Positions 10,103 to 41,500 of a stretch of 64,000 nucleotides of DNA are shown here, one piece after another. A program made the translations under genes and the position numbers. The DNA is taken from the NCBI GenBank assembly GCA_973895155.1, contig OZ316892.1, positions 30,605,328 through 30,669,327 on the forward strand, written 5' to 3'. Origin of the DNA: Marsupella aquatica. Lineage: Eukaryota > Plantae > Marchantiophyta. Under the pieces are notes generated by a model. That model was not told the DNA's origin. It did not search any database and saw only the letters and a program-made list of their open reading frames with translations. Position 1 is the stretch's first letter, and every line of letters begins with the position of its first letter.

Positions 10103-10430
10103 AAAATCATCTTTTCTTGCCTCGTGATGAAGGGATGAGTTCTGGGGATTGAAACATTCCATGGCTTCCTGATTCTCCCCCTAGACCATTTCAGGAACGT
10201 TTCTCGATTCACTATCCCACTCCACAAGATCCATCGGCGAATATTGATTGGAAAGTTGAAGTGCGCACTAGGGAGTTCCTTGGGCGTGTTGATTTCCACG
10301 ACACAAATTGTCTAGGTCCTTCTTCCTTAGTTCCAGCTTGAAGACTTCTGAGTCAATCATATTCCCAATTTTGCACATTTGGTTTTTAGCAAGATCGCTA
10401 TAGAGCGAAATCAGGGGTGGACGATGAATG

Positions 10431-13490: not shown

Positions 13491-13499
13491 TTGTCAACA

Positions 13500-15687: not shown

Positions 15688-15699
15688 TCAGCCTATTCA

Positions 15700-16000
15700 T
15701 TAAAAGTGTATTATTATTTGATTTATGTACATTTGGGCAATGAAAAATGTACTATTGGGCTTGGAAAAGTGTACATTTGGGGATAGAAAAGTGTACAATT
15801 GGCCTAAAGAGTGTACATTTGGGCAATGAAAAGTGTATATTTGAACATCAAAATAGGTACATTTGGCCTAGAAAGTGTACATTTGAGTGAAAGAAACATA
15901 CATTTGGCTTAAAAAGTGTAAATTTAAGTGCATTTGGTATAGAAAGTGTAACTTTGAGTGCAACAAAGTGTACATTTGGCCTAAAAAGTGTACATTTTCC
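15700..16000. repeat. Tandem array of ~21-bp units (AAAGTGTACATTTGG core)
   Basis: About a dozen degenerate copies starting where the gypsy integrase is cut. Probably subterminal repeats of the Sola-like element. Confidence 0.85.
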
Positions 16001-19069: not shown

Positions 19070-19134
19070 TCCTACAACGTGTTCACCTACACAATTTAAA
19101 ATGTAAAGTATTAGTTAACAACAGTCCCAACTAG

Positions 19135-19653
19135 GAAGCAGATAGGTGTGAACCCTATCCAAGGACAGTGCGCAAATAGGGATCATTCCCATCAAGAAAA
19201 ATAATGGGTCCATAAACAATCCTTAGCTAGCCCTAAGATCCCTGATCCCTATTCAGACGTTGGATAGGAATGATCCCTGTCCAGACGGTAGATAGGTTCT
19301 GTCACTATCCAAACAGTGGACATAGATGATCACTATAAACGGCGGACAGGGATGATCCCTGTCAGAATGGCGGATAGGGTCTATCACTGTCCAAACGGCA
19401 AACAAGGATCATCCCTGCCTAAGCGGCGGATAGTGTCTCTCATTGTCCAAAGGGCGGACACAGCTGATCCCTGTCCAAATGGCGGATAGGGTCTATCACT
19501 GTCCAAACAATAGACATGGATGATTCAAGGTCCGGATCACTTAGGATCACTCAGCGATCCTATCAAGTAAAACCTTTCATATTGGGGTCTCATAAAGCAA
19601 ATACCTCAAACGACGGAGAGGGATCATCCCTATCCAAATGGCGAACAGGGATC
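19135..19653. repeat. 28-bp quasi-palindromic tandem repeat array, left part
   Basis: Degenerate GGACAGGGATCATCCCTATCCAAANNNN units, cut by the CACTA insertion at 19654. Confidence 0.85.
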
Positions 19654-20481
19654 CACTAGTAGAAACCGGGGGGTATTTAGACCCCATTAAACGACTATTC
19701 AGTACCGTATAGGACTTGGAAACGACTGGGAAGGACTCCAGTCCTTTATAGGACTGCGAGTCGTATGTTTTGTTACTATAATCAACTGAGTCCTTTATAG
19801 AACTGGTTTATAAGTCGTTTAATAGACTGGATTTTCAGTCTATTTTAGTCTTTGTGTGGGTAGCTTTGGTGAGTCGTTTTCAATCTTTTATGGGCTGAGA
19901 TGGTGAGTCGTTGGGAACGACTAAAAAGGTTATGGAGGGTAGTCTTTAAATATACTTTGTGGGGTATGTATAAGTCTTTCATGTCAACTGGATATGAGTG
20001 ATGAAGACCCCACTATACTACTTGGAATGAACCCACTCTTGTGCACAAATAACATATTGCATTCATGTTTTATTGTGTACTTGGAATGAACTCACTCTAT
20101 AAGTTCACCATTCATCATGTTAACATTAGAATACATAGTTTCAGAAAGCCATCTTCTATACCATGTACACTAATATGAATTCACAGATTCAAACTTCATA
20201 GACTACAAAGAAGGTCACAAAGTATTCCTCTATACCATACACACTAATACTGAAATGATACAAAACAGATTCAAGTATCATAGACAATCACCATAGAGCC
20301 ATAGTTTGACATCAATCACTTGTTTCATACATACAGAATTCAGAAATATCAATGTCACACACAACGGCTCCTTCATCCTCTTTACCAAATGGAAAAATTG
20401 GTACAGATATTTCTTGGATCTTTCCAAGGCAATGTCAAAATGTGACACAATTCACATGATTCTATCTACACTTGCATTCAG

Positions 20482-23400
20482 TCACTGCAGACTAACACAC
20501 TCTGATGGCCAGAGCACAAGAGATCCTACTGCATCTGCAATTATTTCCTGAGGTGGATCATCGTCTCTATTCGGAAATGGCAAATTACAATCAGATACAA
20601 TCACTGTAGTCAACAACACTACTACATGGTCATCCGGGACCACTTTGCCATGGAATTTTGCATGATCCGGTCGCAAAATGCCTGTACCCACACATACCTG
20701 CAAGTCATCCTCCCATGATAGAAGATTATGGACTGGCTCTACTGTGGCTATCACCTCCACCTTACCCTGGCTGTTTTTCTTGGCTTTCCTGGGTGGCTTA
20801 TACATGACATTATTCATACCTTGGTTGCGAGTCATGACTTTGGCACGAGTGTTTTGTGCTAGTGATCGAGAATTGGCTACACTCTTCTTCAAAGAATCTG
20901 CATCCATATTTGACACTTCTGATTGTGTAGCAGGATTTCCCTGCGACATCATCTCAGTATCTGCCAACATTGTACTTGCTTCAATTGAAGCATCTACAAT
21001 CTTACTTGCATCCAATGTTGCTCCCAAGTTTTGACGTCGCTTCACCCTGCTCCCACTTGGTTGAGAGTCTGTCAACTCTGCATCAACTACAATTCAGTGT
21101 CATGTCCAACATAAGTCAATCACTCATCACATGTGCTAAATGTACATGTCACCCACCACAAAGTTGTCACTATCTCCTTACCATTATGAACAACCTTCTT
21201 CCCCTTCTTTGCCATTGCCATATGCTCCATGTCTGCTTCTGTTGATCAATAAACACACCACAATATTCACGTTGAATCTATTAACCACTGAATTGTTGCT
21301 CAACATTCATATAGAGGAATTTAAAGCATCAGCTTACCTGATACCTCCTTGGCTATGGTCACTGAGGCACTGGGCACATCTTCTTCATTATTGCTCTTTG
21401 AATCACCTGATACATCAATCATGATGTCACTTCAGATCCCAGTTCATCCAACCAGTTCTTACAGAAAAGATTACCTCCAACCGGCTTAAGCTTCACAAAA
21501 CTCCATGCACTTTTCAAATGTAATGTACTGGATCATAGCAGGTTACCTGTCTCAGCAACCTTCTTGCCCTCTGCTTACTGATTACAGGGTCCTTCTCTGC
21601 CTCCACTCTTCCTGCATTCAAACCATTCACTCAATTCATGAAAACTTACTTCTAACATTTGAACATAGGACACAATGAACAATGGGCCGGTGTCATTTCC
21701 ATACCTGTGTCAGATTTGCCAATTCCCTTTTTTGTTAACAAGGGCACACTTTGTACAATGTTGCCCTCATTGTTTGGTTGGGAACCACCCAACTTTTCAA
21801 TCACAAGCTTGAAATTAGATTCCACTGATGCAAAAAGGTTCGCTACAGATGCCTCCACAATATCCAAACGATCAGCCAATTTACTTTCCACTCGAGGGAG
21901 TCCACACTCTAATGACTTCAACCGTTCACACATCTCTGTGAGAGTTGTAACAGTTCCCTGTCATAACACAGCTTACATATCTCAGATAACTGTCCCCAAG
22001 AACTGGTTGCTTACTTCCTACTACATTTCTTTCTGATGCTCAAGGCCAAATAGTCACAGAACATACAGAATTACAACATAATCACCTGTTTGGAAGTTAC
22101 ACTTGTCACCTCACTCCTTTGTTTCATGAACTCCTCTCTCACTTCTTGTGCTGATGGTTCTTCACCTGTCAATTTCTTCTGCAGTCCACATCAACATACA
22201 TATGAATGAAACCAAGTGTTGATTGTCAATGAAAATGTAATAATGGTAGCAAGATGATAAGTTTGAGGCTTACTATCAGGCATGTCACTGCCTTACCAAT
22301 TGTTCTTTCACTGGAGCATAACTTCCTCTCCCAGCCTGTGAAAGGTGTTTCACTTTGCCTCGAGCATTTGACATCAGTTCACTCTTGCTCTGTCCAGCCT
22401 CCGACATGAACCCTTTGATTAACCGTGTCCATTGATCCAGTTCCAATGATGGGGGTGGTGGCATTCTCCTGTTAGAACCATTGTCTATCCACATCCTTTT
22501 CAACCTATGCCTCTCTTGTTTCAAAATCCTCATTGCATAATCTGATATGCAATCTTCAACTGGGCCCTTACCATCATTACCAACATACTCCCACCGTTCA
22601 AGAATGTCCTTGCAGATAGCAGCCCAATCAGCTTTGTTCTGACTCCTAAACTCTGTAATGCTCAAATCTAACCAACGCAATACTTCTCCTCTTAGGTCAG
22701 AATGCCAACGGTTCTTACCATCACAGTGGGAGTTATCCAACCTTCGGAATTCACTTCTACTTTACCAAATTTGTTACTGTCTCCTGCCTTGGTACTCCCT
22801 GAAGCGCTACTAGGTGTCCCTCCACGGCCTGGGGTCCCTCCACGGCCTGATCTCCCCCCACGGCTTGGATTGCATTGTCCAAACCTCCCTGGAGTCCCTG
22901 CACATTTACAGGATCCATTTACAGTCACTTACATTAGGTAAGTATGAATCATAAATCCCGCTGCCAAATATACAGTGGACTTCAGAGCAATTCTGCAATG
23001 ACCAAGTTACCTCTCCCTTGGCGCATAGATGGTTCTGGACCACCTGTCCTATTGCTTTGTCTTGATGAATTAGGGGCGTTTCTCCCGCCTGTGAATGATT
23101 GCCTCCTATCTGAACGTGGATGGCCTTTGTTGTTTTCGTGATTGTCCCAATCAGAGTCTGCATACCAACAGGTACATGCCACACTCATGGACCTGTAAGA
23201 TAAACTCTTTGCCCTAGCTACACATCAGATAAGTGCATATTGAGCTAAATCTCTACTACCATCACAAAATCACTAGCACAAGGCACTTACTTGTCCAATC
23301 ATCCTCCTCACCTTTCCATTGCCCTCTGTACCCGTCTCTACCACGCTCTGGGTGTTCATATTCATCCCATCCATCTTCTGCTCCATCATAGTCATCATCA

Positions 23401-23633
23401 TAATCATCAGGCGTCCCTTGCCAATAACTCTGGCTCCTTCTAGGGTATGGATTATGTGATTTCTCTCTAGCTGCCCACCTACCTGGGACTTGATGAGGGC
23501 CCTGTGCATCTTGCACAGGTGCATTTTTCTGTGAGCCCCCTGCATCTGGGTCTCCATCCATATCCAATCTTTCCTCTTCACCCCACTCTCCAAGCCCCAT
23601 GTCTGTCTCCATGTCATCACCCTCTTCCCCCAT
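20482..23633 (-). pseudogene. CACTA TnpA/Ptta-like second gene, multi-exon
   Basis: Exon 22285..22740 has the Transposase_24-like pattern QWTRLIKGF...SELMSNAR...HLSQAGRGSY. Exon 20482..21075 ends in a Tnp1-like domain (FHGKVVPDDHVVV...LPFP...AVGSLVLWP). Acidic and coiled-coil exons lie between. Exact splicing is unresolved. Confidence 0.65.
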
Positions 23634-23810
23634 AGCTTCTGCACAGCACCCACAACCAAACAGGGAGAATCAGCACACTAAATTCAAAGTATCAATCAAT
23701 TTCATGCATATCCAACTATCCTAAACATCATTCCAGGCAGCAATTCCCGTTCTGTGACTCTGTGCAGGTAGTCATCCTCAACCTCATACTTGCCAATCGC
23801 CAGCTGTTGC

Positions 23811-26800
23811 CTATTGCAAATCATCAACCTCATCATATTCCATTTGCCCAGGTTCATCATATGTCTCTCTCAATGTTAAGGGGATGTAGTCAGTCCCTGC
23901 CCGAGTTGGAAGTACAGTCTCATGACTAGGATGCTCGAATGCAGCATGGTCATCCAAACTGAACTCTACTTTACTTCCATCCATCCGCCTGTTCCGTGCT
24001 TGGCTATGGCATACCACCCTCCAGCCATGTGACTCCTCCACATCTGCAAAGAAAGCCTGTTCAACTTGGCTAGGGAAAACAAAAGGCTCAGACCATTCTG
24101 GTACTCTGGACCTAAAATTGGCCAACAAGAACCCATCATGATCACGCTTCATGGTGGCCCTTGGTCTCTGCCACTCTGATTTCACCCATGATCCCTTCAT
24201 CAATATCACTGGGACACTTGTGTTACCATAATTCAACACCCAAATGTCGGTCAACTCCCCCACGTAACCCATCTTCATCCACCCCCTCTGTTCTTCAGAG
24301 GTTCTCTGCTCAAACACAAAAATCAAACCACAATCATATGATACACAATGGTCACCCTGCTCATCCCTCACTCGATAATGATTTCCATAAGCTCTCATCC
24401 ATTTGTAGGTCAGAATAGACAATCGTGGTGGCACAGATAGAAGATACAAATCCTTCTCCATATCTGGGTGATGTCTACTATGCTCTCGAATTGTCACCCG
24501 AATCCATTGCTCGAACTGTGGGAAGGGATCCTGCTGCCCAGAGTGTGCAGCTTTTTGCATATCATATTCCCTGCAATATGAGGTACAGGCATAGTTAGGT
24601 CTAAACAACACATGACAACCTAAGATCACCCTTGGAACAGACAAGAAGCATCACAACAAAGGCAAGTCAATTCAATCACTCACCTCCACCATGGTTGCAT
24701 AGGCTCTGTGTTTGCCAGCACATATGAATGAGCCTTGTCTCGAATCGCAACAGGCAGCTGAACAACACGTCCCACACCTTCAACAACCTCGCCACTCACT
24801 CCATCATCTTCACCAGATTTCCAAACTCTTGTCATAGCTTCACCAGACCCAGCCATGTACTCTGTTAGGAATCCCAACGTCTCATCCTTAATGTACCCCA
24901 ATGCCATGGAAGCCTCTGGCCTGTAGTATGTTCTCACATGACCTTTCAACAACTTCATGTATCGCTCCATAGGGTACATCCATCTGGTACTGACTGGCCC
25001 ATACTGCCCTAGCTCTTCTACCACATGGATTAGGAGATGAGTCATAACATCAAAGAAAGCAGGGGGGAAGTATATCTCCAAGTCACAGAGGACATAAGCA
25101 GCATCCTGCTTCAACTGCTCCAATCCTTGGGGATCCCACACTTTCACACATATACGGCGAAATACATTGCACAGTCGAAGAATGACATTACGGACTGGTT
25201 TCTGCATGAGACCTCTGAGGCATAGGGGCAGAATGTGCTGCATCAACACATGGTAGTCATGTGTTTTCATACTGCCAAGTTTATTCTTTGTAATATGCTT
25301 CTTGAAGGCACCAGCATAGCCAGAGGGCACTTTCAGACAGCTCAATCTATACAAGAATGTCTTCCATTCATCCTGTGTGCACACATAGGGAGCTTGGAAC
25401 TTGAGAAGTACATTGGGATTGCTTGCATGGGGCTTCAACCAAAGGTGAGGGCGAATCCCCTTCTGTTGCATATCAGCTCGAACTGCTCCTGTATCTTTCT
25501 CACCCGACAAGAACTTCAGCAAGCTCTCACAAATATTTTTCTCAATGTGCATGACGTCCACATTGTGTTTGCTGGGCTCGAATTCTTGCACTCCACAAAG
25601 CAAAGAATTCAACAACAGAAACACTAATTAACCACATAGGAGGATTGTAACCAACATCAATCCACCATTGCTCCAATCTAAAATTGCAATCATACAGGGG
25701 CTGGAGGCTAAGTACATTACCCTCCAGTACTCCAACTCCAAGTCCATCAAGGTCTGTCTTTTCACACCGTGTTTCACCACTGGATCCTCAGGTTCTCGAT
25801 CAGTGGCACTTCTCTTGTCCCAATCAGCCTTCCTGGCTGCCCACCTCAGGACTTGCTCTCTGGTGACCCTCTGTGGTGGGCCACGAAGCTCTGTTTTGTT
25901 GTTGAAGTGTGCAATTTGAGACCGTGTGTGCCTGTAAGGATGATCAACAGGCAGATACCTTCTATGCCCCTGAAATTTCATACTGTGCAGGGCATGCGAC
26001 CACTCACTTGTCACATTTTTCCCACATGGTGTGCACCCCACATAGCCCTTTGTCACTCGTCCAGATATGATGCCATGGCCTGGGTAATCTGCTATATCCA
26101 GCAAACAAATTGCATGCAGTCTAAAGGGGCTGGGTCGAAGAAGCCCCTTCAGAACATCATGGGTTAACACCCCTTCTATCCACAAAGTCTTCCACTCTTC
26201 CACTGCTGGAGCCAACATGATATCTATGAATTGCTCGGTCACAGAAGCTGGTCCAGGGATTAACAGCACCATCATGACAAAAAACCTCTTTGTAGTCATC
26301 CATGGGGGAAGGTTGTAATTTAGCAGCGTAACCGGCCAACATGAATAACGGTTGTTTTTGTCTCCAAATGGGTTTACTCCATCCAGTGATAGACCAAATC
26401 TAAAGTTCCGCTTCTCTGCAGCAAACTGTGGCCACCTCTCATCAACAAATTTCCAATGGTTGGAATCTCCAATGTGACGCTGCAGGCCATCACTGCTCTT
26501 GTTATCAGGAGTCCATGTCATCAGCTTGGAAATGGCAGGGCATCTAAACAGACGTTGAAGTCTAGGAATGAGAGGAAAATGACGAAGAACCTTGGCAGGG
26601 TGTGTACATTTCCCTACATTCTTGTACCTATGCTTACCACAATGAGGGCATGTCAATTTATCTGCATGCTCTTTGCGAAAGAGAACACACCCATCAGGGC
26701 ATGCGTCAATAGACACATAGTTCAGCCCAAGGTTAGACATCAATTTCCTAGCCTCGTACATATTTTTTGGAATTGAATTACCATCTGGTAACACATTTTG

Positions 26801-27511
26801 GCGCATGAAGGTCAACAACTCTGTCACAAATATATTGGGAACATTGTGATTGCCACAGATGTTCAACAACAACACGACAAAACCCAGCTTGGAGCAGTTC
26901 GACCCCTCGTAGATAGGAATGCAAGCTTCTTTGATGTGTTTTGGGCCCCCAAACACCCACTCCCTCTCTGCTGCACCTTCCCCAATGTCAAAGTCAGGTT
27001 CAGCTTGGCCGTCGCCAATGTGTGGCTGCGGTTCATTGTCCTCTTCTGATTCCACTGTGTCATAAAAAGCATCAAGGTCTTCAAAAATCTCTTGAACCAT
27101 TCTTGGGACATCCATCCCACCGTCCTCAGTGACTGCCTCTCCATCTCCATCTTGGTCATCCACGTTCTCATGTTGGACCCCAGGACCATCCTCTGCACAG
27201 TCTATGTCCTGCTCTACGTAGTCTCTATGCCTAGCTGTATTAGAATCCACAAAGTCAGCTCTCCACTCTTCATCAGAGGAGTCTTCTTCTGCTGGTACAT
27301 TCCAAACCCTCCACCGAGGGTGCCTTTCATGCCGCAGGAGGTGAAGGTGCACAGTGTTCAAACTCAACGACTTGAATCCTTGGCACTATGTGCATGGGCA
27401 TCTCATCCTCCTACTCCTACCTTGGGCGGCCCGGGCTTGTTCACGCATCCACAATTTAGAATCATGATGCCTAATCCTAAATGGGTTGTGAAGAGGCAAC
27501 CTTGGAGCCAT
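23811..27511 (-). pseudogene. CACTA TnpD/Tnp2 transposase (zinc domain, Transposase_21, DUF4218, DUF4216), 3 exons, one premature stop
   Basis: ATG 27511, RCPCT*C..VHLHL (TAG at 27386-27388), IDACPDGCVLF, LRHFPLIPRL, LSLDGVNPF, NYNLPPW, DYPG, DVMHIEKN, KTHDYHVLM, FPPAFFDVMTHL, RWMYPMERY and EPFVFPSQVEQ. Confidence 0.93.
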
Positions 27512-27829
27512 CACTATACACACGCACTCAGCACCCTGTCATTTTATTATGCAAGTGAAAAATACACTTCCTGTTAAGGATTTCACCCCCAACTGTACTT
27601 GCCAAAATACGTAACGTTCCAAAAAAACAAAAAATATAGGTGCCTGAGTCATGTACCTATTCTCAAGTGAATGAGACAAAATTCCTAAATGTTTGAGGGT
27701 GTCAACTCCTCCGCTGTCCTCACATGTACTGCCTCTGCACGTACATCCATGACCATATCAGAGTCCAATCATGTATAGTCATAGACACAGGTGCCAGGTG
27801 CGAGACCGGTGTGAGATGTCCTCATCTTA

Positions 27830-28399
27830 CTACCACATCAAATACGGATACCAATCCTGTTGTCGATGCCACTCAGCCCTGAGGTACTCAGGCATGTACA
27901 TTAAGTCATCAAGGTCTAAACCCTGCTCATGCCATGGTGGTCTTCGATCCGTGCCTACAAGCAGTGGCAGCAGTGCCCTCCATGGTGCACATGTTGCTAC
28001 CAAGTCCCTCCACTGGGTACTAATTAGTCTATATTTGCAGATATCTTGTGCGCCAGATACCACAAGAACCCTTGGCCAGACATGTGTAAGAACTATATCA
28101 TCTGCCAAATCAGGCAACAAGGAACCACCTACAGCATCGTGCTTGTCTAACTCATCTGCTGAAAAGTAAATGTCCTCTTCCGACTGTGCATCCTCATTCA
28201 CCACAGCATTCACAACACATCCAAGGTCTGCAGGCATTATCTCGGATGGAGCTACACTCTGTCTGGTTACCAATCCACACAAGTAAGCCCAAGCAGTAGC
28301 CATGCACGATGCAACCCGTAGGAGGACCCTACATAGGGCCTGACGGTCTGGAAGAGGCAGCATACCCACCAAAGTCTTCAGCCAAACAGAGCCCAGCAA
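27830..28399 (-). pseudogene. F-box-like ORF within CACTA
   Basis: LLPDLADDIVLTHVWPRV...ICKYRLISTQWRDLV resembles the plant F-box consensus (LP.L.DD.....l.R...R.Vs..WR.l). The start is unclear. Confidence 0.55.
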
Positions 28400-28539
28400 G
28401 TAGATTCACAGTCACACCCCACGCAGCAGGAAACAACAATCACTTCAACTGCGACCAACCATGACAAGATGAGTTAGTTCAAGGATCACATTTATTACAA
28501 AATTGTGATTTATACAAAAATATGAGGGACTCCTACTCC

Positions 28540-29387
28540 TCACTCTCTCCCACCTTTGCTAAGCATACATCTCCGCTGAATCTTGGAGGGCCAGGCCTCA
28601 AAAATATCAAAGTCCCAAGCATTCTGTCGCTTCCCTCTAGCTGCTGATTCCAGAAGCCAATCAGGGGAAAGCACCCAAAGATTGTTGTTCATGACAAAAT
28701 CACACACTGTTGTCTTAAAGAATTTTCTGCATATTTTCATGTATGACAGACCTACAACATGAGTGGAGGTTTCTGTTAGACTCTCCTCCACTGTCCCACC
28801 TAGCTCAACAACTATAGACTTGTACAATCTGCACTTAGTCTCCCCAATTCCTTCTTCTGCAAATACCACACTGAACCCCTTCATAATGGTATTCTCTCCT
28901 TGCCATGCTCATTCAATATAGCATCTGCACGCATAGGATGGTGTCCTATGTTGACAACAGGTCCATATTGGACAGAAGCAAAGTTGGGTTTCTCTGCCGC
29001 TGCTTCATAGGCTTCCTTTTCAGCCAAAGCCTCTGTAGTGGCCTCCTTACTCTCCCACAACTCATATTGCTCAGTACTCTGTACACACCTATGTTTAACA
29101 GAATCGGTCAGCCAAGAGACTTCAACTACTTTTAGACCTTGGTTGGTAATGGCAGAATCAATGAAGGACCATGACCACTTGTTCATCACATCCAGCCATG
29201 TCCCCGCAACAACATGTGTAGTCTGTGGAGTGATGTCCTTGACTTCAGTCCCATGGAACTCTGAGAATCATTTTTGTACGATTGGCCAACTCACTTGGGT
29301 GAACCCATAGTGGCCAGGAATCAAAATGGCTTTGATTCCAGCCAACAGAGGCGGGTGGTCAACCTTTGTACGTTTCCTAGAGGCCAT
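28540..29387 (-). pseudogene. Tandem BRCT-domain protein (DNA polymerase lambda BRCT-like) within CACTA
   Basis: ATG 29387 gives MASRKRTK. BRCT1 has TTHVVA...VVEVSWLTDS with a TGA at 29268-29270. The frame changes at 28881-28884. BRCT2 has LGGTVEESLTETSTHVV...VLSPDWLLES. Confidence 0.75.
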
Positions 29388-29985
29388 GTACACACGGGCC
29401 ACCTAATCACTGCAGACCGGAAGATAATGCGTTCACCTGATAATCGGAGGGCCCTTAAAATGCTGCGTTTATAACTTGGTCCAGTCTAGTCGTCTGGTGA
29501 GTCTCTGCTCCGATTCCAAACGGGAGAAATATTGGGACAAACGTACTAGACACCTGCAAGCATGCACCTCATAGTTTGAATATGTGCCTTCACAATATTG
29601 AAGGTGACAAGTGCAATTGTTTTGTGATGCCACATACAGATGTTGTAAATGGGCAGACATTCAATGAGAATACAAAATATTGGTACACTTTAAGGGAATT
29701 CTCGCAAATTAAATAGCCTTGTAACTTATATGCTCATAATGAGAAGTCCTGATTTAATTTAAGCAGTGTCATGTAAGTCGTGATCAAAATGATTGCAGAG
29801 TTAAAAAAGTTCCTAGAAGGCTTAAGGGGAGTTTTTGAAGGCATGTACCCAGGAACAAGTAATGAACTTAGGGTACTTGTTGCCTAAGCATCCTCTCCTA
29901 CAGAGGTCCTTCTTCTCAAAATTGGAATGTCTGCAATCTCCAAGGTATCCACATCAGGTGCACTATGCATGTACATTATTCAGGT

Positions 29986-30664
29986 TCAAAGCCAAGAAAT
30001 GTGATCTCTCATGGGAGTGTGCAAAGTAGGATCTATGGCATGGCGATGACAATAGAAGATCCATCGATCAACACCATGTGCAGAGTGATCATAGATGTGT
30101 CTGTCACAAGCATAGCCTTCTGCTTGACGCTCCTTCAAACAATGAAAGTGCCACATGGTGGGACACCTAACAGTGGACTATGTCCACCCAGAAATCTTCA
30201 TCGTGCTGACCACATGCCTTGCACTTATGAAGTGGGCAAGCTGTGGCAAGATCGGGCAAACATGAAAAACAAAAGAACCTCACACAATATCTGTCAGGGC
30301 ATTTCCTAACAAGTGGTGGAGCATCAACAGAGCCCTCATAAGACCCCAACTTCCCACACTGTGCACACTTAGCCTGCTTCTCCAAACAATCAGTGCACAT
30401 CCAGCCTCCCTGGTGTGCTGACGGGAGGCCCACCCCTGGACAGTTGTTTTCTGCAGCAAGGACAGACTCCGGGTTGAGGTGGAAATGCCTCATGCAAGGG
30501 CCCTCACATATGGCTAAGCCACCACCATCGTCACAAATGGCACAACAATGAGCTGCCTTCTGGAAAATCTGACTTGCGGAGAAGTTACTACCATCTGGCC
30601 CAACTACACCTGTGTTGCTCACCTCTGTCCCCCGCTTCTTGGCTCGGATTTTAGGGCGTGCCAT
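29986..30664 (-). pseudogene. EDM2-type composite PHD finger protein within CACTA (one frameshift)
   Basis: CAICDDGG...CEGPCMRHFH...CTDC...CAQCGKLGS...CPLHKCKAC. After a shift at ~30170 it continues RCPTMWHFHCL...WIFYCHRHAIDPTLHTPMRDHISWL*, matching the EDM2 pattern CRRCPKSYHRKCL...LIYCxxHEID...TPxRDH as recalled. Confidence 0.8.
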
Positions 30665-31333
30665 GCCTACGCATGAGATAGATAGTACAATTTAGCAGAG
30701 TGCACAGACAATACAATTTAGTGTAGTGTACAAAAAGTACAGTGTAGCATATAGACTAGAGTGGCAATTGCTACTACAATGAAATGTTCACACACATGTG
30801 CAGAGTAGACATACTTTTTGGTTTGTTGAGCCCACACTAAAAACTGATCCCCTCGTACAATAGCTCCACCTACACCTCAATTTTGTGGCTATGATTCACC
30901 AAAGGAGATCTGCAACAAGATTTAATGCATTTGAATCACATATAACAGTCGTGACATGTAAAACAGGCATTTTTTGAACAGGATTGGTATCAAGCACTGT
31001 GATCAGGGTTGTAATTTATACATCCTAAATAGGCTATGATAGTGAATGAGACAAATAAGTTAGGCAGAAATCACTTTTTCCAGGTTATCACATGGCCCAT
31101 TAATTCGAGTCTTTGAAAGGAGACTTTTAAGTGAGCTTGCTAGCCTCTTAAATTAGGATATTGTACTTAGTGCAGCCATAATAGGATAAGTTATGTACTG
31201 TTGACCCTAAACCCTGGACCCAAAATTGGTCATAATTCAAAATCTTAAGTAAATATCCTCTCTGTTCAAGTCAAAGTGTTAAGTTATAGGTCAATGGTCT
31301 CTGGTTTGTGCATGCGGTGTGACAAGTGGTCCT

Positions 31334-31783
31334 CTAGAGCGTGTGATCCAAACATGTGTAGACACCAAAGTGACCGGTGGTGGGGTCTGGGAGGGCAGGA
31401 CAAGTGACATCGCCAGGCACACTACAGGATGGCGAGTGGTTCCAGATGATACATTGTGCTCTGTGAAAAAACCGACATCCAAGAGAACGGTCATCCAACT
31501 CTAGGCCAGAAGCCCTACAGGCAGGACAGTCATATTGGCAACTGTGCACACACCCTTGGGCCCTAATTTGTGGCGGGTCATGTACTAGAGACAGAAATAC
31601 CAAGGATGTTGGGAAGGGTGGAGAAGCAGGTACAGGCCGGCTGTAGTTGTTCCTGGCAACAACTGGGTACTCAAAGTACCATGCAGACTGGGCTGGAAGG
31701 ATCCCAAGTCTGACATACTCAAGGCGCAACATCTCTGCCTTGCGTGCAAGCCGCACATGTTCAGCGTTGCGGGTCCTCACCAT
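31334..31783 (-). CDS. Small Cys/His-rich ORF of unknown function within CACTA
   Basis: 149-aa ATG-initiated frame, co-oriented with the other cargo, containing CVHSCQYDCPAC...CRFFH...C...H...C. Confidence 0.35.
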   Translation of the reverse strand: MVRTRNAEHVRLARKAEMLRLEYVRLGILPAQSAWYFEYPVVARNNYSRPVPASPPFPTSLVFLSLVHDPPQIRAQGCVHSCQYDCPACRASGLELDDRSLGCRFFHRAQCIIWNHSPSCSVPGDVTCPALPDPTTGHFGVYTCLDHTL

Positions 31784-34700
31784 AAGTGTTGCTTTTGTGG
31801 AGATGTCGTGTGTTCACGTCCTCTGATAAGCACCTTCGATCAGCAAGGTGAGCAGGAGCTGTACTTGCCTCACCAACAGCAACCAACCTTAAATTATCAG
31901 TTCCCACTCACTGTGTCATTCCATTGGTTCCAGCTAGGGGTCACAGTGTAAACATAGCATGAAACACTCCTAATCAACTTGCTTACAAACTACAATATCC
32001 AGAAAGAGTGAAAGTCTCACCCTCCAGTGAGCAGCAGAGTGGTAGTTCAGTAGATGTGTTGATGTGCAGTTAAACCTCCACTATTGCTTACTTCTGGTGT
32101 ATGCTGCTCAGAAGAAGACATATTAGTAGCAGCAAATTGCAAATAATGGCCATAAGCAAACCGTGAGAGTTTGCAGAATGCTACGACAAATCCATCACAG
32201 CAGTGCTCCACAGGAATGAAACCAAGCAAAATTTGGTGACCTCGGCCAATGACAAGGCCAATGTAGTGAACAATCCTTGACCGATCAGGATATGGATTGG
32301 AATTACAATTAGTCAGCTCTTCTTCTTTGTTTTCTAACTCTGGGGGAAATGAGCATGACCAGGGAATTCTCTGAGAAATAGAAGAATCGCTAAGTACAGT
32401 ATTCTTAAGAGTAGTTTTGTTCTAATTCTGAAATCTACACATAGGACATTTATCATGAAAACTGAAGATCCATTTGACAACTCCATGATAGCCTATTCCG
32501 CATTGTGTCCGCTCCATGCAAGCAAGGGGTATTCATCCGAGCTTAGTCTAACCATGAATGATTGTTCTGGAAGCAGTTGCGACAATGTTTTGGTTTTTTT
32601 CTCCTATCCAACTCAATAGCTCACAAACATGGCATTGGACCCATTAACAAATTATACTTGCCATCATTCTCAACTGTATTACATGGCCCACACTGCTGAC
32701 ATCCCTGACTCTTAAGGGAAACTCATCTCCTGGGCCAACAACATCTCAGATTCTACAAAAATGAGAAACTGTGAAAACTTCTTGATCTCCTATCCTGTGA
32801 TTGTAGCATGTATGATTTGCTGGGACTGCAGGCAGTTCTGGACCTTGCTGCGCTTTATATACAACAACAACCTGAGCTCCATGAATTTGTTTTTAATAGA
32901 CGTGCGTTTGACCACGGCTACAACTCCAAAACAATCACCAAATCAAATCATAACAAAACCCACTCGAAAGCTGAACACTAGAACACTGGGAACACACTCA
33001 AACAGGTTCTGCAAGGATGGCTCTCTGTCGGATCGGCTAGAGAATCAGGCAGGCTTCCTATATATGGTCTGCTCAGAGCCTTCCACTCTGGATTAGACTC
33101 TGAATCCAAATGCGAGTCTACGCTTTCCGTTGCTGGTCACAACGACGGGCAATCAGGATGATGCCATGCCGAGTAGAAGAACAAGAAAGCATTCCATAAA
33201 AGGCACTGAGATGAACCGTATAGTAAAAGTGGTAGTACTTCCGGTAGCACGACCGACTCGCTATGTGACAGTCCGAAGAAAAGCTAAAAGGCTGAAAGGC
33301 GATAGATTTTGTGCTCAATGTGACAGGTTTTTTGAAATGATCAAGCCAAGGTGCAAAGGAAAACTGATTGAAGGTGACATGGGAAAGTTGTCAATGCAGG
33401 AGAAACTCTTGCCTTAGAGTAACCGTGTAACCAGGTAACAATGCAGGAGAAACTCTTGCCTTAGAGTGCTCGACGCTCCTTCAGCTGGATAGGGGCAACT
33501 CCAACTACACGGTCTGGTCCAATCACCGCCTGCTTTGTTACAAGAAGGTGGACTAAGCCACAGCTGATGTCAATCACACTGTAAAAAATGGACAGATGAG
33601 CCATGTCACGAAAGCATATATAGTCATTCCTCAATATTAAATGAGACTATGAGAGGGCATATATAAGTTCACGACTAGGAAAGAGTCTCACCTTGTAGCA
33701 CGGAGATTCTCAAAGCGCACCAAGATGAATCATTGTAGCAGGTGAATGTTGGGCGGTGTCATGTAAGGCGCAAATCAATAGCTCGCTACCTCCTGTCTCC
33801 CCGTCTGTCTCCCGTGCACTTCTGCCTCCCCGTCCGGCTTCCCGTCTGTCTCCCACGTACTTAAATTGAAGTTTTAACAAAAACTGTCAACACCAAGTGC
33901 AGCAAATGCCAACATATTCACACGGCAGAGCATAAAAGTAGTCACAGTTCATGAATCAGTTCCCTATCAAATCATGGGCACTACGCCGAGCACTGCGCAA
34001 GAGACTAGGATAGACACTGCAAACATGGGGACTTTTGTTTGGCAAGAAATCTGGACATCAAACCTTCAACAATGGCAACAGGAAGCATTACATCAAACGA
34101 GAGGACATCAAATGAGCAGTCCGGTTATAGGCAAACGGCGACTGACATAGCGGAGGGAAAAAATGCGCATTGACATAGCGGACATGCGCACATTGACATA
34201 GCGGAGGGGAGAAAAACTACAAAGCCAACTAACCTTTTTAAGGCCCACAATTTCAAGGGGAGGGACAAAGAGAGCAAGCACTCCAATCTCTTCAATCCCT
34301 TCTGCAAGTAGCCGCCAAAATCTACTTCTTGGGGTCCAGCCCACGGATGGAGATCATGCAAGGTGGTCAATCACAGTAAGTGCAATCGTTGCAATCCACA
34401 AACAAGCTGCAAATGAAGACACGCAGGAGGGAAAGTCCGCAACACCAACAACATTACCCTTTGTAAAACCCCGAGCTTATCTTCTAGTTGCCAACGCTCA
34501 AACAAAACCTGCTCGGACACTACCAAAACCCTAATTCCATAAGCTCTCACCTTTGCGACACAACTCCTGCACTATATTCAGCTGGCGTTGGCCCACTCTA
34601 AGCTCCCAAGCTTCACTTTAGTCCGCGCCGTGACTAAAGTTTCACTGCCTCTGTGAGCTTCGCAGTCCACCTTACAGATCGAACAAAGCAATCACCTCCC

Positions 34701-35847
34701 TTCACATCCGCACTAATCACCTTTCGCAAAGAGTTGCAATCACCTTCCGCAATACCAGGAAGCTTGCTCCCTCTCGTTCAATGCCTTCTGCAGCATGAGC
34801 GATCACCTCTGCCGAAGCAACTTCAATCGAACACACAGCAACGGGGCGGGCAGTGACAACATTGACAGTGAACGTTGGACTCTACTCAAACAACCTCAAA
34901 GCTGTCACAAAAGAACGAGGAAACATTGAGGCAGAAAACAAAGTCCCTAGCGCCAGGCAACCAAAGTATCGGGAAACCAAAGGATCGGGACCAAAGGAAG
35001 GGACGACATGCCATTCCAACAACGGGAAGGGGGAACGGGACGCGGGAACGGGCAATTTTTTGATGGTGGGGATGGATGCCAACGATCCAATGGTCCCTAA
35101 ACCCCCATCCCCTTAACATGCAACCCCCGACCCTTCACATCAAACCCCCCCTTAACCCCCTTTAGTGAAAACCCAGCCACCCCCTAGCCTTGACATATAA
35201 ACCCCCTAATGTGCTTAGGACAACTCGACTGTGGCCACACTATGTTTGCAATGCCAGGGTCATCCATTTAGAGCGCCGCTTGCAAGCTTTGGCTCTCAAG
35301 ATCCTCCCAAGGCAGCAAACAAGTTAGGGTTCACGGTCCATGTTCCTTTACCCTAAACCGTTGCGTCACTATTTCAATCGAGTGTTCTTCGGCTGGACGT
35401 GCCCCTTTACTGACCCACACCCCCTTGAGACCGGTACAAATCTACCTTTGTGCATCTCGGCCTTTTATAGATGGATTTAGTAATGGCCAAGAATATGTTG
35501 ACCATCCCTCTGTAGTCCACCCTCCATGAACCTCACTTCATTAAACCCAAAATCTTTTTGGTCACAAAATAAGGCCATTTAATGAGTTATGCCCCTTGCT
35601 ATCACCCTCTTTATAGAATTACCCCTCCTCAGCATAAGTGGTCATTACCCATGATGTGCTAGACTATTCATCCTTCACAAAGTAGCAAGGTTACTTTTCA
35701 TAGTCTTTTAGTGAACCATAAAACACTAATAGTCTTTTGTAGTCTTCAACAAAACCGGTGCAATGGGTATGAGTTGTTTTAAGTATGGAAAAAGGACTTA
35801 GTGGGCTTAGTCCTATAAGGTATGGTCTAAATTGCCCCGGTTTCTAC

Positions 35848-36316
35848 CTATCCAAATGGCAGAGAGGGATCAACCCTATCCAAATGGCGGATAGGGATCA
35901 TCCCCATCCAAATGGTGGACAAAGATCATCTCTATCCAAACGGTGGACAGGGATCATCCCTATCCAAATGGTGGACAGGGATCATCCCTATCCAAAAGCC
36001 GGACAAGGATCATCCCCATCCAAACGTTGGACAGGGATCTCTGCCAAAATGATGGATAGTGTCTATCACGGCGGACAGGGATCATCCCTATCCAAATGGC
36101 GGACAAGGATCATCCCTATCCAAAGGATGGACAGGGATCATCCCTATCCAAAATCCGGACAGGGATCATCCCCATCCAAACGGTGGACAGGGATAATCTC
36201 TATCCAAACGGTGGACAGACATCATTCTTATCCAAAATCTGGACAGGGATCATCCATATCCAAACAGTGGACAGGGATCATCCCTATCCAAAAGCCGGAC
36301 AGGGATCATCCCCACC
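35848..36316. repeat. 28-bp quasi-palindromic tandem repeat array, right part
   Basis: About 16 copies of GGACAGGGATCATCCCTATCCAAANNNN, continuing the 19135-19653 array and cut by TGTCAC at 36317. Confidence 0.92.
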
Positions 36317-37400
36317 TGTCACGCGATTGACATGGGTCTTAACACCAAAAACGTCACTATGGGTGTCAAAACCATCTCCTTGTACCTGAGGATCACGAAG
36401 GGATGTTGTGAAGGCCGGTAAACACCAATTTATGCCCTTAACACCAAACTAGATCATAGCCAGACTCCATCACACATCACCCAAGCTCAATCCCAAGGAA
36501 CCAAGGTTGGGGATCAGGTCTACGCTCATGATAGTTCTAGTGAGAAGGGGTCTTCATATCGGGCCCGTACACACAGGGCCTAGCGCTACGGTGCGCACAG
36601 GTCTATACGTATGCTATGGTGCGTCCCATGGCTCCCTAAACCCAAGAAACCCCCCAGCTCAAGCCGATTCCCGCAGGTTTCGCGCTTGGCGAGGCCGTTT
36701 CCGCGGCTTAGCGGCATGGGACGCTGCTAACCTTCTACTACTACTATTAACATTTTACACACATATACTGGACAGATCCTTCATCGGGTCATGAGATACG
36801 TAGCCGGCCTAATCTAGGCCTTCCCCTGTCTTCCCCTCCGTCTTGTTAGGTATGTTTGGATTCCGCCGCCGGAATGATCCCCAATAGGCTTGGTTAAGCC
36901 GCTAAGACCTCTCTCAGCTCGACACATCCAACTCTCACTCCCCTGCTTACTTTCCTTCCCTTTGGTTGATGTGGGCACTCTTCACACAAGTTAATGCGAC
37001 ACACAAATAGCAAAATGACTCATTCTGACTGAGTCATACCATGCACTTGCCATACAAACAGTACATCTCATACACAAGTTCTGCGAACTAAGCCGTGAGG
37101 CCAACTCTATTCAGCTCTTAGGCATGAGGAAACATGAATATACACAAGGGTCACTGTATGACTAACCGAGAGCTTCTCGTACTACTTGATCCCAGCCCGG
37201 CTGGTGCAAACTAAAAACTTGCTAAAGAAGAGGCCCTGAGCTCCCCGCTGCCCAGGTACTTATCCTGGCAGTGGATCCGCCATTCTTTGCATCGTAAGCC
37301 TAATCTACTTAACAGTAATCTACTTGCCCGAATCTACCTATGTACAGCAAGGCAGGAGCACAAGTGTTGCTCCTACCAGTGGGACCGCAATCCCACTAAG

Positions 37401-38477
37401 CTAAGTGTCAGGGCCGCTCCTGGTCCTGATCCTAATCCTAAACTTGGAGATCAGCGCCCGCCCTGCCCACTCACGCCTCCTCCCTAAAAGGAACGGCGCC
37501 CTTGCACCGTCACGACACCGGTGGTGGATCCTTAATGGACGCCCCAACGCTTCCTCCTCAGCCACTGCCGTAGGCTCATTCTCTGACAGATTACCTGCCC
37601 TTGACTGAGTCAACTCTCCATCGGCCTGACTGGGTCCACCATCGGCGTCGGCATCGGTTACGGCCTCAGCCTCGGCTACGGTCTCCCCGGCCTGCTCAAG
37701 AGGCGGATCTGGAATACCGGCCTCATTACTGAGTAGTTCGGCTTGGGCCGCACCACCCCCACCTGTGATGATAGCGGGATCTATTGCCGTATTCATGCCG
37801 GAGGATGGTGCTGGTTCTACCTCTTTGGTCACCACGGCTTGTGGAGTCGGATTACTCCTTGACCCTGAAGGTTTCCGCTTTTTCTTCTTTTCTGGTTCGG
37901 CAGCTGGTCCCTTCCCCTTCCCACTTACTTCCGGCACTGGTGCAGTTGGCGCGGCTTTTTCTTCGGCCAGTACCACTCCTGGTAACTTGGTTGCCCCAAT
38001 TGGAGTTGGGCCTGATGAAGACAAGCACTTAAATACTGCGGCTTGTTTCTTTAGCCGCTCCGTTTGGTTGTCGGCCCGCCGCTGGAGGTTCTCCATCTTC
38101 CTCGTGATTTCCTCCAACTCCTCCTGGATCTCATCCAGGTCCTTGCGTGCCTCCTCTAGTTCCTTCTGGGCTTCCTCCCGTTCTTGTTTCAAGGTAGTCC
38201 TCTCCTCCTGGGTTGCTCTTAGCTCCTTGTTGAGCTCTGCAATGATGACAGACTCCATCTGGTTCATCTTGGCGTAAGTCTGTTCGAGCATCTCGTCCTT
38301 CTCCCTTAGGTCGGCCTTGAAGCTGGCCGTCAGGGACGCAAGCTCCTGCTGCAGCGCCATAATCCCTTGATAGGATTTCCCTAACTCGGCCTCCTTCTGC
38401 TCAAGGGCTCCGCGGATTTTCTAGAGCTCCCCCTTCAACGCCCATTCCTTTCTTTGGGTCTCCGCCATGGCCCGGCT
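37401..38477 (-). pseudogene. C-terminal part of the LTR-encoded ORF in the solo LTR
   Basis: Homologous to 41245-42216. A 1-bp G deletion near 37543 removes the normal stop. Confidence 0.9.
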
Positions 38478-38592
38478 TGTGATGCCTAGACAGGAATCAC
38501 TCGGCCGGTTAAGTGGGTAAAGCAGGAAGGCACCCTAGGAACACCTTAGTATAGTGACAAAACAAGGAAAATATAAACAATTAGGGGCAACC

Positions 38593-41500
38593 ATGGAACC
38601 CGGGCAGAGGCCGGAGGTAAGGCTGAGGGTGAAAACCCGATTAGGGTTAGGGCGCGTTAAGCGTCGGCGGCTAGGAAGGATCAACGGGAAGAAGGACCGG
38701 CAGAGGAGAGGGGTAAGGAGCGCTTGCAGGAGATGGTGGCTCATTTGCGAGCACGAACTAGGCAGACGACTACGGGAGGCCAACTACTGTCAGCTGCTTA
38801 GGCAAGCACTCGGGGAGAGAGTAGATACCGACGATCAACCTAAGGAGGGTATGAGCAACATCAATCAAGCGGCACATTTCTGGGGATGCCTGTTCGAACG
38901 GGCGACTGAGTACATCAAGACTTACGAGGACGAGGAGTCAGAAAGGGCAGCTCGAGAATGGCAGGAGCTCGCTCGATTGTGGGAGCTGCAAAAGACGGCT
39001 TTCTTAGGAGGCGAACTCATCAAGGACGAGTTCCTGTGGACGCCTACTTCCAATCAACTCGACGATCTTCTGTTTTGCAAGGACAGCGTCGTCGGCATCC
39101 GAGAGGCCATCAAGAACTGCAACGACATACACTGGGAATTAAAGGGTAGCACGGAAAGGTGGACCCAGGCAACGGTGCTAGGAGAAACCTCCACGGCAGC
39201 AGAGATGAAGAGGAAGGGAGCCGTCAACGATGAAGCCACCCCGGCAAAAAGAACGAGGTCGGCGGCACCAAAGAAGCCAGCCGAGCAGCAGAGCAGGAGG
39301 CAGGGAGAAGCCGAAGAGGAGGAGGTCGATCCCATCAAGGCCATTCCAACCAGGGATGACACCTGGAAGGGCTGGGCGGCAACCCTACCGGTGGAGGTGC
39401 AACTACATTTTGCACGGGAGGAGGATGCATGCTTTACGGCCATGCAGACCAAGAAGTACCAAGGCTTCATGGCCGGATCCGGCTTGGAGGCCTTTGTAAG
39501 ATTACCATGGCTGAAGCCGGAGGTACCGGAGTCAGACCTATTAGAATTCGTGGGGTCATGGGAACCCGAGACCAATTGCACGAGGATATATGGGAAGGAT
39601 TTCTATCTTACTCCCAAGGTGATTGCCGAAGTGTTTGGCTTGCCGATGGGCAATAAGACCAAAGTTGATACCAGGAAGACCTTGCCTGACAAGGAGTTCC
39701 GGTCGTTCCCCGGGCCATCAACGAAGAATGGCTTCTTCCGGAACACCTGCACCAACCCGCACATAGGAGAGATGATCGACTTCTTGCGGGTGACCATGCA
39801 TTGTAACTTGCCGAGGGCAGAGATCGGCAAGGCACAGGTCTATCTGGCAGAAAGGCCAGACCCAAGCCGGGACTACAACGGGTACCTCCTCAACCAATTG
39901 AAGAAGATCTTAAAGGAGGAGCAGCAGGTAATCGGCATGGGGAGCGTGTCTCGGCTTGGCTATCACATGCCGCTGTTGTGCCGGTATGCCAGAGGTCAGA
40001 CTTTTGCCCCGGTACTTCCCCTGCAGGTAAGGGCACCCGAGGAAGCTCCAACGCCGAGGCCGTTGGCTGAGAAGCCTCAACCACCTGTTAGTCCTACGAT
40101 CGAGCAGGTGTTTAGGCCCAGGAAGGAAGACTTGCCGATGCAGCAACCAGGCATGCAGAGTCTGCTGAAACTACTGGAGAAAGAAAAGAAATCGGCATCG
40201 GCAACAACAACGGCAACGGCAACAATGCAGGACACTACTACAGAGGTAGGCCTACACCGGCTCACAAGAGAAAACCCCTTTGCTGGAGACAAGGAGAGAA
40301 TCAGGCCGGAATCCAAGCCAGGTGTTCGAATGTACGTGGGAACCTCAAGCTCTGAATCTGAGGCAGAATTGCCTGAAGCTCCTACCGAGGAAGAGGAGAG
40401 GGAGAAGCCGGAAATCCAAGAGGTAGAGGAGGCAGTGGAGGACTGCAGCCATGATAATTCCGGCTATGGGTCGGACCATCACGTTCCAGGAGTAAGGACC
40501 TGTGGCCGGTTTGTCCCCACACTTCCAAGGGTAGTGCGAGGGGACCCCAACCAGCAGAGTAGCCCTGAGTCTCCCCCACCAGATGTTGCTCCCCCGAGCT
40601 TCGACGGCATAAAACAGACGGTGCAGGAATTTCAGGAGCGAATCAAGCAGGAGGAAGAGGCCGCCCTGGCTAAGGAAAAGGATTTACCAGGAGGAGATTG
40701 GCCGGAGGACATCAGGCGGCTAGCCGAAAAAGGAAGCAAACCTCTAGCCACGATTGAAGAGATCCGCAGGACGGCTTGGGAGCAGAGGCCACGATGGGCG
40801 ATGCCGATCACTTCTACTTACTCCACCTACGCTAAGAATAGAGCCATGGAGTATGGTGAGATGTGTGGGGAACTTGCGCTCGGCATCTTTGGAGAGGAGT
40901 TGGAGGTAGGACCCTTTTTCCATAGGGAGCAGTTGGAGAAGCACCAATTAGAAGAAGCGGTGGCTTTAGAGAGAAGCAAGAAGGACGAGGTCATTCGGCG
41001 GCTTAGGAGGATGGAAGCCGAGATTGAAGATCTAAGGGCGGCCAAGAAAGCCCAAGATGAACTGCGGATTAAACGACATGAGCTGAACATCATGCAGGGG
41101 CAGTTGGACGCCGCGCAGGCTGATAATCAGAATATCAAGGATAAACTGACTCAGACGCAGGAAGAGTTGGCCGACACGATCAAAGAAAGGGAAAAGTGGA
41201 AGCAAGAGCTGAAGAATACAGAGGAGGCCCACATAACAACCAACAGCCGGGCCATGGCGGAGACCCAAAGAAAGGAATGGGCGTTGAAAGGGGAGCTCGA
41301 GAAAATCCGCGGAGCCCTTGAGCAGAAGGAGGTCGAGTTAGGGAAATCCTATCAAGGGATTATGGCGCTGCAGCAGGAGCTTGCGTCCCTGACGGCCAGC
41401 TTCAAGGCCGACCTAAGGGAGAAGGACGAGATGCTCGAACAGACTTACGCCAAGATGAACCAGATGGAGTCTGTCATCATTGCAGAGCTCGACAAGGAGC

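Follow-up and report, generated by a model that had tools for sequence, protein, structure and literature searches.

A transposon may carry, beside its transposase, small genes with chromatin, repair and ubiquitin domains of host type, and the locus described here raises the question of whether such genes are kept by the element or are host sequence picked up in passing. The window analysed is a 64,000-nucleotide stretch of the liverwort Marsupella aquatica (GenBank assembly GCA_973895155.1, contig OZ316892.1, positions 30,605,328 to 30,669,327). It contains a DNA transposon of the CACTA type, with all of its genes on the minus strand, and four small genes, referred to here as the cassette, that lie directly upstream of the transposase. 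The analysis suggests that these derive from host chromatin, repair and ubiquitin domains acquired long ago and were kept as accessory genes, with blunting of silencing as their most likely predicted effect, a reading to which we assign a probability of about 0.5. The genes are as follows, in the direction of transcription.

31337..31783, minus strand: Cys/His-rich open reading frame (ORF), 149 residues, MVRTRN..., intact in this copy
29989..30664, minus strand: triple-PHD gene, broken by a loss of 2 nucleotides at about 30169; intact form 226 residues, MARPKIRAKKRG to HISWL
28543..29387, minus strand: tandem-BRCT gene, MASRKRTK..., with a TGA at 29268-29270 and a loss of 1 nucleotide at about 28891; about 282 residues when read through
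27833..28363, minus strand: F-box-like gene, 177 residues from MLPLPD, intact in this copy
23814..27511, minus strand: CACTA (TnpD-like) transposase, broken; Transposase_21, DUF4218 and DUF4216 spread over three frames

Arrangement of the cassette and its sister copies

The minus strand of 27830-31813 (3984 bp) holds five long open frames, which make up the four small genes in the order Cys/His-rich ORF, EDM2-type triple-PHD gene, tandem-BRCT gene and F-box-like gene. The transposase follows on the same strand, its ATG (27511) lying 318 bp beyond the F-box-like stop. The number of frames is more than would be expected by chance, since the five stop-to-stop frames of at least 120 residues were reached by none of 1000 dinucleotide-preserving shuffles; 749 of the shuffles had no frame of this length, and the maximum of four occurred once. 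All four genes have an ATG and a stop of their own, and in three of them a basic N-terminus follows the ATG. The PHD gene is split into a first frame of 165 residues (30170-30664), starting MARPKIRAKKRG, and, after the frameshift, a second frame (29989-30177) that corresponds to the third finger and the C-terminus in the alignment with its relatives.

A preliminary description of this DNA, made from the letters alone, had reported Cys-rich, PHD, double-BRCT and F-box-like ORFs co-oriented upstream of the transposase, several of them with their own ATG and a basic N-terminus, in a decayed copy. All of these frames are present on the minus strand, and the decay is evident as well: a single frameshift breaks the PHD gene, a stop and a frameshift interrupt the BRCT gene, and in the transposase an in-frame TAG at 27386-27388 precedes more frame breaks. 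The genes had also been called intronless; no host introns are visible in the frames, although this is an appearance of the DNA sequence.

The same cassette recurs in sister copies. Part of the region 27400-32100 is present in 11 of the 13 runs listed; four of these, under two organism labels, hold at least half of its sampled words, and a run under a third organism label holds a fraction of 0.42. Contigs matching 19000-36500 at 80% identity or more number 6409 in run X2, 15191 in X3, 733 in X5 and 194 in X6, and those of X2, X3 and X5 cover all 30 bins of the interval. Summed word depth, which is a rough measure and not a copy number, is 23,000-203,000 (X2) and 73,000-387,000 (X3) in the cassette bins (27760-32431). 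The transposase bins (23672-27759) have values of comparable magnitude (38,000-95,000 in X2 and 132,000-233,000 in X3), and the adjoining segment 32432-35351 lies 10-30 times lower (2,800-9,200 in X2 and 3,100-15,700 in X3). Contig cover and depth are unbroken from 19584 to 32431, across the junction between the F-box-like gene and the transposase. The cassette is part of the highly repeated body of the element and not of this copy alone. In X6, which carries a fourth organism label, the contigs of at least 80% identity have summed depths of 1052-3610 over the PHD gene and 125-617 over the F-box-like gene; both genes look repeated there too because near-identical X6 contigs have a depth of only 6-10. 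The BRCT gene and the spacers are without contig cover in X6 and X9-X11, which was not used as evidence.

Some sister copies rejoin the broken frames. An AC insertion behind 30169 accounts for 16,914 of a depth of 18,174 in X2, 10,968 of 55,018 in X3 and 13.6 of 110.7 in X5, and it is also found in X10 contigs. A T insertion behind 28891 accounts for 16,047 of 42,332 in X3 (five contigs) and 19.9 of 49.5 in X5 (one contig). When both insertions are applied in a script, the PHD frame becomes 226 residues long (MARPK... to ...HISWL) and the BRCT gene reads as 39 residues, the TGA and 242 residues. The idea that the cassette belongs to a family and not to one copy is thereby upheld, with contigs from runs under at least three organism labels tiling it. 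Neither absence of the cassette from other copies nor neutral evolution combined with near-identity to host loci was found.

Two joints within contigs were also seen. The first (25135/31345, X3) skips 6209 bases, and with them the PHD, BRCT and F-box-like genes and part of the transposase would be lost; it is weak, its shorter side being only 22 letters. The second (30866/31641, X2) skips 774 bases. Both are candidates for internal-deletion derivatives of the family.

Relatives and age of the cassette proteins

The PHD gene has the most informative relatives. An exhaustive phmmer search with the PHD frame over 1.84 billion representatives gave 170 matches at E ≤ 1e-3, 23 at E ≤ 1e-10 and five at E ≤ 1e-30. 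Four of the ten clusters looked up are named, one of them as 'protein ENHANCED DOWNY MILDEW 2' from Cryptomeria japonica (P0147, E = 2.5e-10). Among 20 matches scanned, the long ones have PHD-1st_NSD, PHD_NSD and PHDvar_NSD in this order, three of them with DNMT1-RFD as well, and in P0122 and P0123 the first and third NSD-type fingers were detected. In an alignment of 11 PHD sequences (mean column identity of 35%), seven Cys residues and one His residue, the zinc ligands, are invariant. The retained ligands, the match to the EDM2-named cluster and Pfam matches below the cutoffs together indicate three consecutive NSD-like fingers in the window protein, and the earlier assignment to the EDM2 type is sustained. 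The full EDM2 architecture, with a DNMT1-RFD-like N-terminus and a long C-terminal region, is absent from the window frames and from the small relatives in Pfam searches. The PHD protein is a homologue of the EDM2 module and not an EDM2 orthologue.

The window protein is 38-45% identical to named EDM2-type host proteins. Its six closest matches are instead proteins of 166-245 residues without a protein name, which lie on contigs of 1.1-5.7 kb and are 42-60% identical over the matched stretches. A tree was calculated from 125 rows (the window protein and the 124 of 150 listed matches that span at least 80 query residues, the other 26 being dropped). With 138 columns kept and the midpoint root serving for drawing only, it places the window protein and 14 proteins of 109-257 residues on one side of a branch with a Shimodaira-Hasegawa-like approximate likelihood-ratio test (SH-aLRT) value of 94, which is not starred. 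On the other side are 110 EDM2-like rows, of which 77 are longer than 600 residues, 24 are of middle length and nine are small. The preliminary description had looked to clades specific to transposable elements as a test; the PHD protein does group with small stand-alone proteins, whereas the transposon-borne nature of these is presumed.

The ends of the PHD protein are shared with its relatives. The window protein (30629-30664, minus strand), P0125, P0136 and P0141 begin with MARPK[I/V/K][K/R]AK, P0121 with MARTK and P0128 with MTRTKQ; at the C-terminus three relatives share the HISW motif, P0129 ending in HISWL like the window protein, and P0122 and P0126 ending a few residues later. The BRCT and Cys/His-rich frames of the cassette open similarly (MASRKRTK and MVRTRN). 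In its letters, the PHD N-terminus resembles the start of histone H3, a ligand of PHD fingers, and equally a plain nuclear localisation signal. In the AlphaFold model (mean predicted local distance difference test score, pLDDT, of 64.9), the core residues 51-140 have values of 74-88; residues 1-46 are below 50, and the model therefore gives no support for docking of an H3-like tail on the protein's own finger. A Foldseek search of the model against the PDB gave nothing at E ≤ 0.001, the best match being the NSD2 PHDvC5HCH (E = 0.2). In a wide structural search with VIA-align nearly all rows were PHD fingers, at scores too low to count (best Z of 4.3), and the best solved structure by sequence was the AIRE PHD finger (E = 0.009). 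Searches with the PHD alignment elsewhere returned no relative: in metagenomes, 141 pattern matches led to a single locus (L001, on a 318-kb contig), which was rejected as an unrelated SNF2/CHD-like remodeler of 2925 residues that carries PHD fingers, and none of 34 pattern matches in a scan of viral contigs was a relative.

For the F-box-like protein, one relative was found among 170 candidates. P0276 (170 residues) is 51% identical over 172 columns, with the better conservation in the C-terminal half, and its start ML..PD falls at the matching position. All protein-atlas matches with a named family belong to F-box families, and their scores (0.84-0.89) make them leads below 0.9 only. The F-box-like ORF of the preliminary description is thus real as an intact frame, and the leads and the relative agree with its naming, although its F-box score lies under the Pfam cutoff. 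The AlphaFold model, built from a two-sequence alignment, was unusable (pLDDT of 36), the profile found nothing meaningful among solved structures by sequence, and a viral contig scan gave 601 pattern matches and no relatives.

In the tandem-BRCT gene the second repeat scores 38.9 bits, above the Pfam cutoff of 21.3, and the first is 24% identical to it over 71 residues (E = 4e-4 to 1e-3). Together with the T insertion of sister copies, which joins the frames, this indicates two adjacent BRCT repeats. Of the double BRCT described earlier, the second repeat is therefore clear, and the first is recognized by its similarity to the second while staying below the cutoff. The best match of BRCT2 among solved structures is a weak one to the human BRCA1 BRCT (E = 0.31). 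In the one search made for BRCT relatives, which covered longer proteins (215-2000 residues), none of 137 candidates reached E ≤ 1e-3, a null result that counts as weak evidence.

The Cys/His-rich ORF is, as described, an intact frame of 149 residues, but no family was found for it in Pfam, the protein atlas or solved structures searched by sequence. Its Cys and His residues are concentrated in the C-terminal half, which to the eye looks RING-H2-like. Among the differences listed from X6, X9 and X10 contigs, six of nine are at third codon positions (binomial p of about 0.04) and five of nine are synonymous, two Cys codons included; this is a small sample of nine sites from the best-supported rows. 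For the transposase, 16 of the 26 differences listed are at third positions and 13 are synonymous. On the plus strand a frame of 120 residues (31589-31951), one of 31 proteins scanned against Pfam, runs antisense to the start of the ORF; it has a weak FYVE zinc-finger match (E = 0.0045), whose 17.5 bits stay under the cutoff of 27.8. The coding strand at 31589-31951 is not fully settled, although further downstream the codon positions point to the minus frame.

These comparisons bear on the age of the cassette. The nearest relatives of the transposase and of two cassette genes are at comparable distances: the closest transposase relative, on a Logan contig, is 61% identical, against 60% for the PHD protein and 51% for the F-box-like protein. 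The diverged relatives of the latter two have open frames with matching start or stop positions. The comparisons indicate that the cassette is not a recent capture, because the PHD protein is so far from the host EDM2-type proteins and groups with small stand-alone proteins, and because the nearest F-box-like relative is about as distant as that of the transposase. The strong divergence from host proteins noted earlier is confirmed for the PHD protein, and likewise for BRCT2, which has no match among the longer proteins.

The element and its surroundings

CACTA (En/Spm) elements are recognized by terminal inverted repeats CACTA...TAGTG, a 3-bp target-site duplication and subterminal repeats. 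Further features of the element in the window are the following.

35790..36360, strand not assigned: subterminal array of 28-bp repeats at the gene-5' end (Tandem Repeats Finder, 35847-36312, period 28/56/84; unit about GGACAGGGATCATCCCTATCCAAA...)
32432..35351, strand not assigned: internal segment of low depth, with a summed contig depth 10-30 times below the rest of the element
20485..22761, minus strand: downstream ORFs of the element, one of which (22288-22761) has a weak, unconfirmed Transposase_24/TnpA-like match
19138..19660, strand not assigned: subterminal array of 28-bp repeats at the gene-3' end (repeats at 19243-19508)

The superfamily call comes from the transposase and the subterminal arrays, because CACTA/TAGTG termini and a target-site duplication were not found. 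Transposase_21 (tnp2) is matched over profile positions 1-208 of 213 (E = 1.2e-59, 201.5 bits, Pfam cutoff of 28.6) and DUF4218 at 95.7 bits (cutoff of 27), while DUF4216, at 25.8 bits, is under its cutoff of 30.6. The closest named relatives of the transposase, with 40-41% identity, are from the liverwort Riccia sorocarpa. The 28-bp arrays (19243-19508 and 35847-36312) are inverted with respect to each other and bracket the cassette and the transposase; the inverted matches of the 5'-side array extend over 19243-19524. The downstream ORF at 22288-22761 scores 16.8 bits for PF03004 against a cutoff of 28.7.

X2 contigs depart from the window sequence at 32384, a loose end whose string is absent elsewhere in the window. 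The frames of the low-depth segment that begins nearby have no Pfam match, and the segment is perhaps variable within the family, or represents a nested insertion or a 5' region specific to a subfamily. The preliminary description had contrasted the cassette with intron-bearing scraps in a second CACTA element; this contrast could not be reproduced, as tblastn with the transposase found neither a second cassette copy nor a second tnp2 transposase in the window at E ≤ 1e-3.

Outside the element, a large repeated unit is present in three copies, two in direct and one in inverted orientation (36617-43135, 49360-53830 and 53166-56822) at 98-100% identity, with further inverted arms at 84-99%. It holds a coiled-coil-rich frame of 1225 residues (38539-42216, plus strand) with a weak ATG16 match as its sole Pfam match, and looks like a recently duplicated element or gene of no known kind. 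Just beyond the 3' subterminal repeats lie two adjoining minus-strand frames of 490 and 209 residues (17012-19114) without a Pfam family. A retroelement integrase fragment (14952-15692, minus strand; rve, 26.7 bits against a cutoff of 32.6) adjoins short tandem repeats at 15699-15983.

Weighing the explanations, and known systems

Captured host fragments in transposons are usually partial, intron-bearing and close to the parent gene. CACTA elements often carry ULP1-type cargo, and Pack-CACTA elements carry host-derived coding sequence. The most serious alternative to a kept gene set is that the ancestral element took up host retrogenes or fragments by transduplication of this kind, that their abundance came from amplification of a master copy and that their frames are intact through youth. 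Capture of host sequence is general among CACTA and other plant DNA transposons, this copy decays freely, and the evidence at the level of copies comes from close contigs, mostly 90-100% identical, in which selection and youth are inseparable; the missing BRCT relatives fit as well. Close identity to a parent, partial frames and introns, however, are not what was found: the nearest named hosts of the PHD module are distant and BRCT2 has no match among longer proteins (public proteins were compared, the host genome not being among them), and every gene has its own start and stop. Nor would passive cargo be expected to have relatives such as those of the PHD and F-box-like genes, which at 42-60% identity, about the divergence of the transposase, show open frames, conserved zinc ligands and matching starts or stops. 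We regard this explanation as rather unlikely.

A different possibility is that the frames belong together as exons, either of one protein with several domains (zinc finger, PHD, BRCT-BRCT and F-box) or, by alternative use, of one transcription unit. They are co-oriented and in a row, and zinc finger, PHD and two BRCTs is also the domain order of plant BRCA1/BARD1-type proteins. En/Spm-type elements also make several products by alternative splicing (PMC13547354). Three of the frames, however, open with an ATG and a similar basic N-terminus. Real protein ends moreover fit better than exon borders, because the end of the PHD protein (HISWL and stop) and the start of the F-box-like protein (ML..PD) lie at the same positions in relatives of 50-60% identity; these relatives are ORF calls from contigs, a procedure that favours models running from Met to stop. 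One spliced gene appears improbable. That the cassette is no part of the CACTA element, and is a separate repeat nested in or adjacent to it upstream of the transposase in this copy, would agree with the undefined termini and the clearly different abundance of 32432-35351, but is very improbable given the unbroken cover and depth, the bracketing 28-bp arrays, the single strand of all genes and the X3 deletion joint (22 letters on its short side).

The cassette is thus probably a retained accessory gene set. Several observations weigh against this reading. The domain calls are in part marginal: all three Pfam matches of the window PHD protein are under the curated cutoffs (PHD-1st_NSD 21.6 bits against 27, PHD_NSD 18.1 against 23.9 and PHDvar_NSD, the third finger, 12 bits), BRCT1 scores 17.2 bits, or 18.6 when read through with X, against 21.3, and the F-box score is 13.3 bits in the window protein and 19.3 in P0276 against 20.5. 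No convincing CACTA/TAGTG pair was seen near 19.0-19.3 kb and 36.3-36.6 kb, nor a target-site duplication, and the element ends may be degraded or elsewhere. In diverged relatives, no contig was found that connects one cassette gene to another or to the transposase, so that linkage beyond the family is presumed, and the small PHD and F-box-like relatives on their short contigs could be host genes. The decay of this copy, the missing relatives of the BRCT gene, the lack of a family for the Cys/His-rich ORF, the roughness of the depth measure, the few codon sites, the tree support and the short deletion joint count on the same side. Of the accessory toolkit proposed earlier, the family-wide presence and the diverged PHD and F-box-like relatives are borne out, whereas the BRCT gene is without relatives, the Cys-rich ORF without a family and the diverged relatives without a shared gene order.

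An anti-silencing or repair role is something that we infer. On this reading, selection would maintain its genes and the relatives of the PHD and F-box-like proteins would also be transposon-borne. Its products would act in the nucleus on host chromatin, with the basic N-termini as nuclear localisation signals. At methylated copies of the element, the PHD protein would recognize those H3 states that EDM2 also reads, and there it would compete with or mimic the host reader, or recruit the element's other products. The F-box-like protein would tether a host factor to the SKP1/SCF ligase, and the BRCT pair would bind phosphoproteins at the double-strand breaks left by excision. Each gene could have a promoter of its own, or a single 5' promoter could serve all of them through alternative splicing, as in En/Spm. 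A bolder version, which we consider unlikely, is a multi-protein kit kept over long divergence, in which an EDM2 decoy with an H3-like N-terminus is combined with a BRCT phospho-reader for excision breaks and an F-box adaptor that delivers a host silencing factor to the SCF ligase; such a kit would have no relation to VANC and could be a path for EDM2-type modules to pass between transposons and hosts.

Several known systems resemble the cassette in part. Pack-CACTA elements and ULP1 cargo share with it the host-derived coding sequence inside a CACTA element; the cassette differs in that its frames are compact and complete, have no visible introns and are very diverged from the host, and in that two of its genes have diverged relatives. 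If the genes are passive cargo after all, this would be ordinary transduplication in a very abundant repeat. The polerovirus protein P0 is a viral F-box-like silencing suppressor that hijacks the SCF ligase. As a small F-box-like protein encoded by a parasite it may serve as an analogy for the proposed role, with the difference that the F-box score of the cassette protein is below the cutoff.

The TnpA protein of Spm reactivates methylated elements. The cassette element shares with En/Spm (TnpA, TnpD) the Transposase_21/tnp2 and DUF4218 domains, subterminal arrays at both ends and accessory products beside the transposase; it differs in carrying genes with host-type domains upstream of the transposase, its TnpA-like ORF being weakly indicated downstream. 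Some Arabidopsis EN/SPM families use separate genes, En/Spm otherwise making several products per transcription unit (PMC13547354). Plant tandem-BRCT readers of gamma-H2A.X are also on record (PMC11014961).

EDM2, which is nuclear and contains PHD-finger repeats, alters H3K9me2 and CHG methylation at transposons; its PHD repeat binds histones in a modification-dependent manner, according to its authors, who cite unpublished data (PMC3632883). The cassette PHD protein matches the EDM2-type repeat, and the order of three fingers is seen in its long relatives. In contrast to EDM2, it has only 226 residues in its intact form, lacks the DNMT1-RFD-like domain and the long C-terminal part, and is borne by a transposon.

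Transposon accessory proteins and captured host genes are already known, and the set of PHD, BRCT and F-box-like genes in a CACTA element appears to be new in that we found no description of it in titles and the starts of abstracts. The main text of an Arabidopsis atlas of transposon products mentions neither PHD, BRCT and F-box domains nor EDM2 (PMC13547354).

The functional model behind the preliminary description is VANC of the VANDAL elements, which counteracts epigenetic silencing of its own family (PMC10398659). Like VANC, the cassette products would be transposon-encoded accessory proteins beside a transposase; unlike VANDAL, which is Mutator-like (a MULE), the element is a CACTA and its domains are PHD, BRCT and F-box-like. 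To our knowledge, no part of plant transposons is less well understood than their accessory proteins, and VANC is the only well-worked example of anti-silencing. If the proposed role is true, the cassette would bear on the origin of small EDM2-like PHD proteins and on the exchange of host chromatin domains with mobile elements. It would also stand beside VANC as a second and mechanistically different case of anti-silencing, acting through an EDM2-homologous reader, a BRCT pair and an F-box-like protein.

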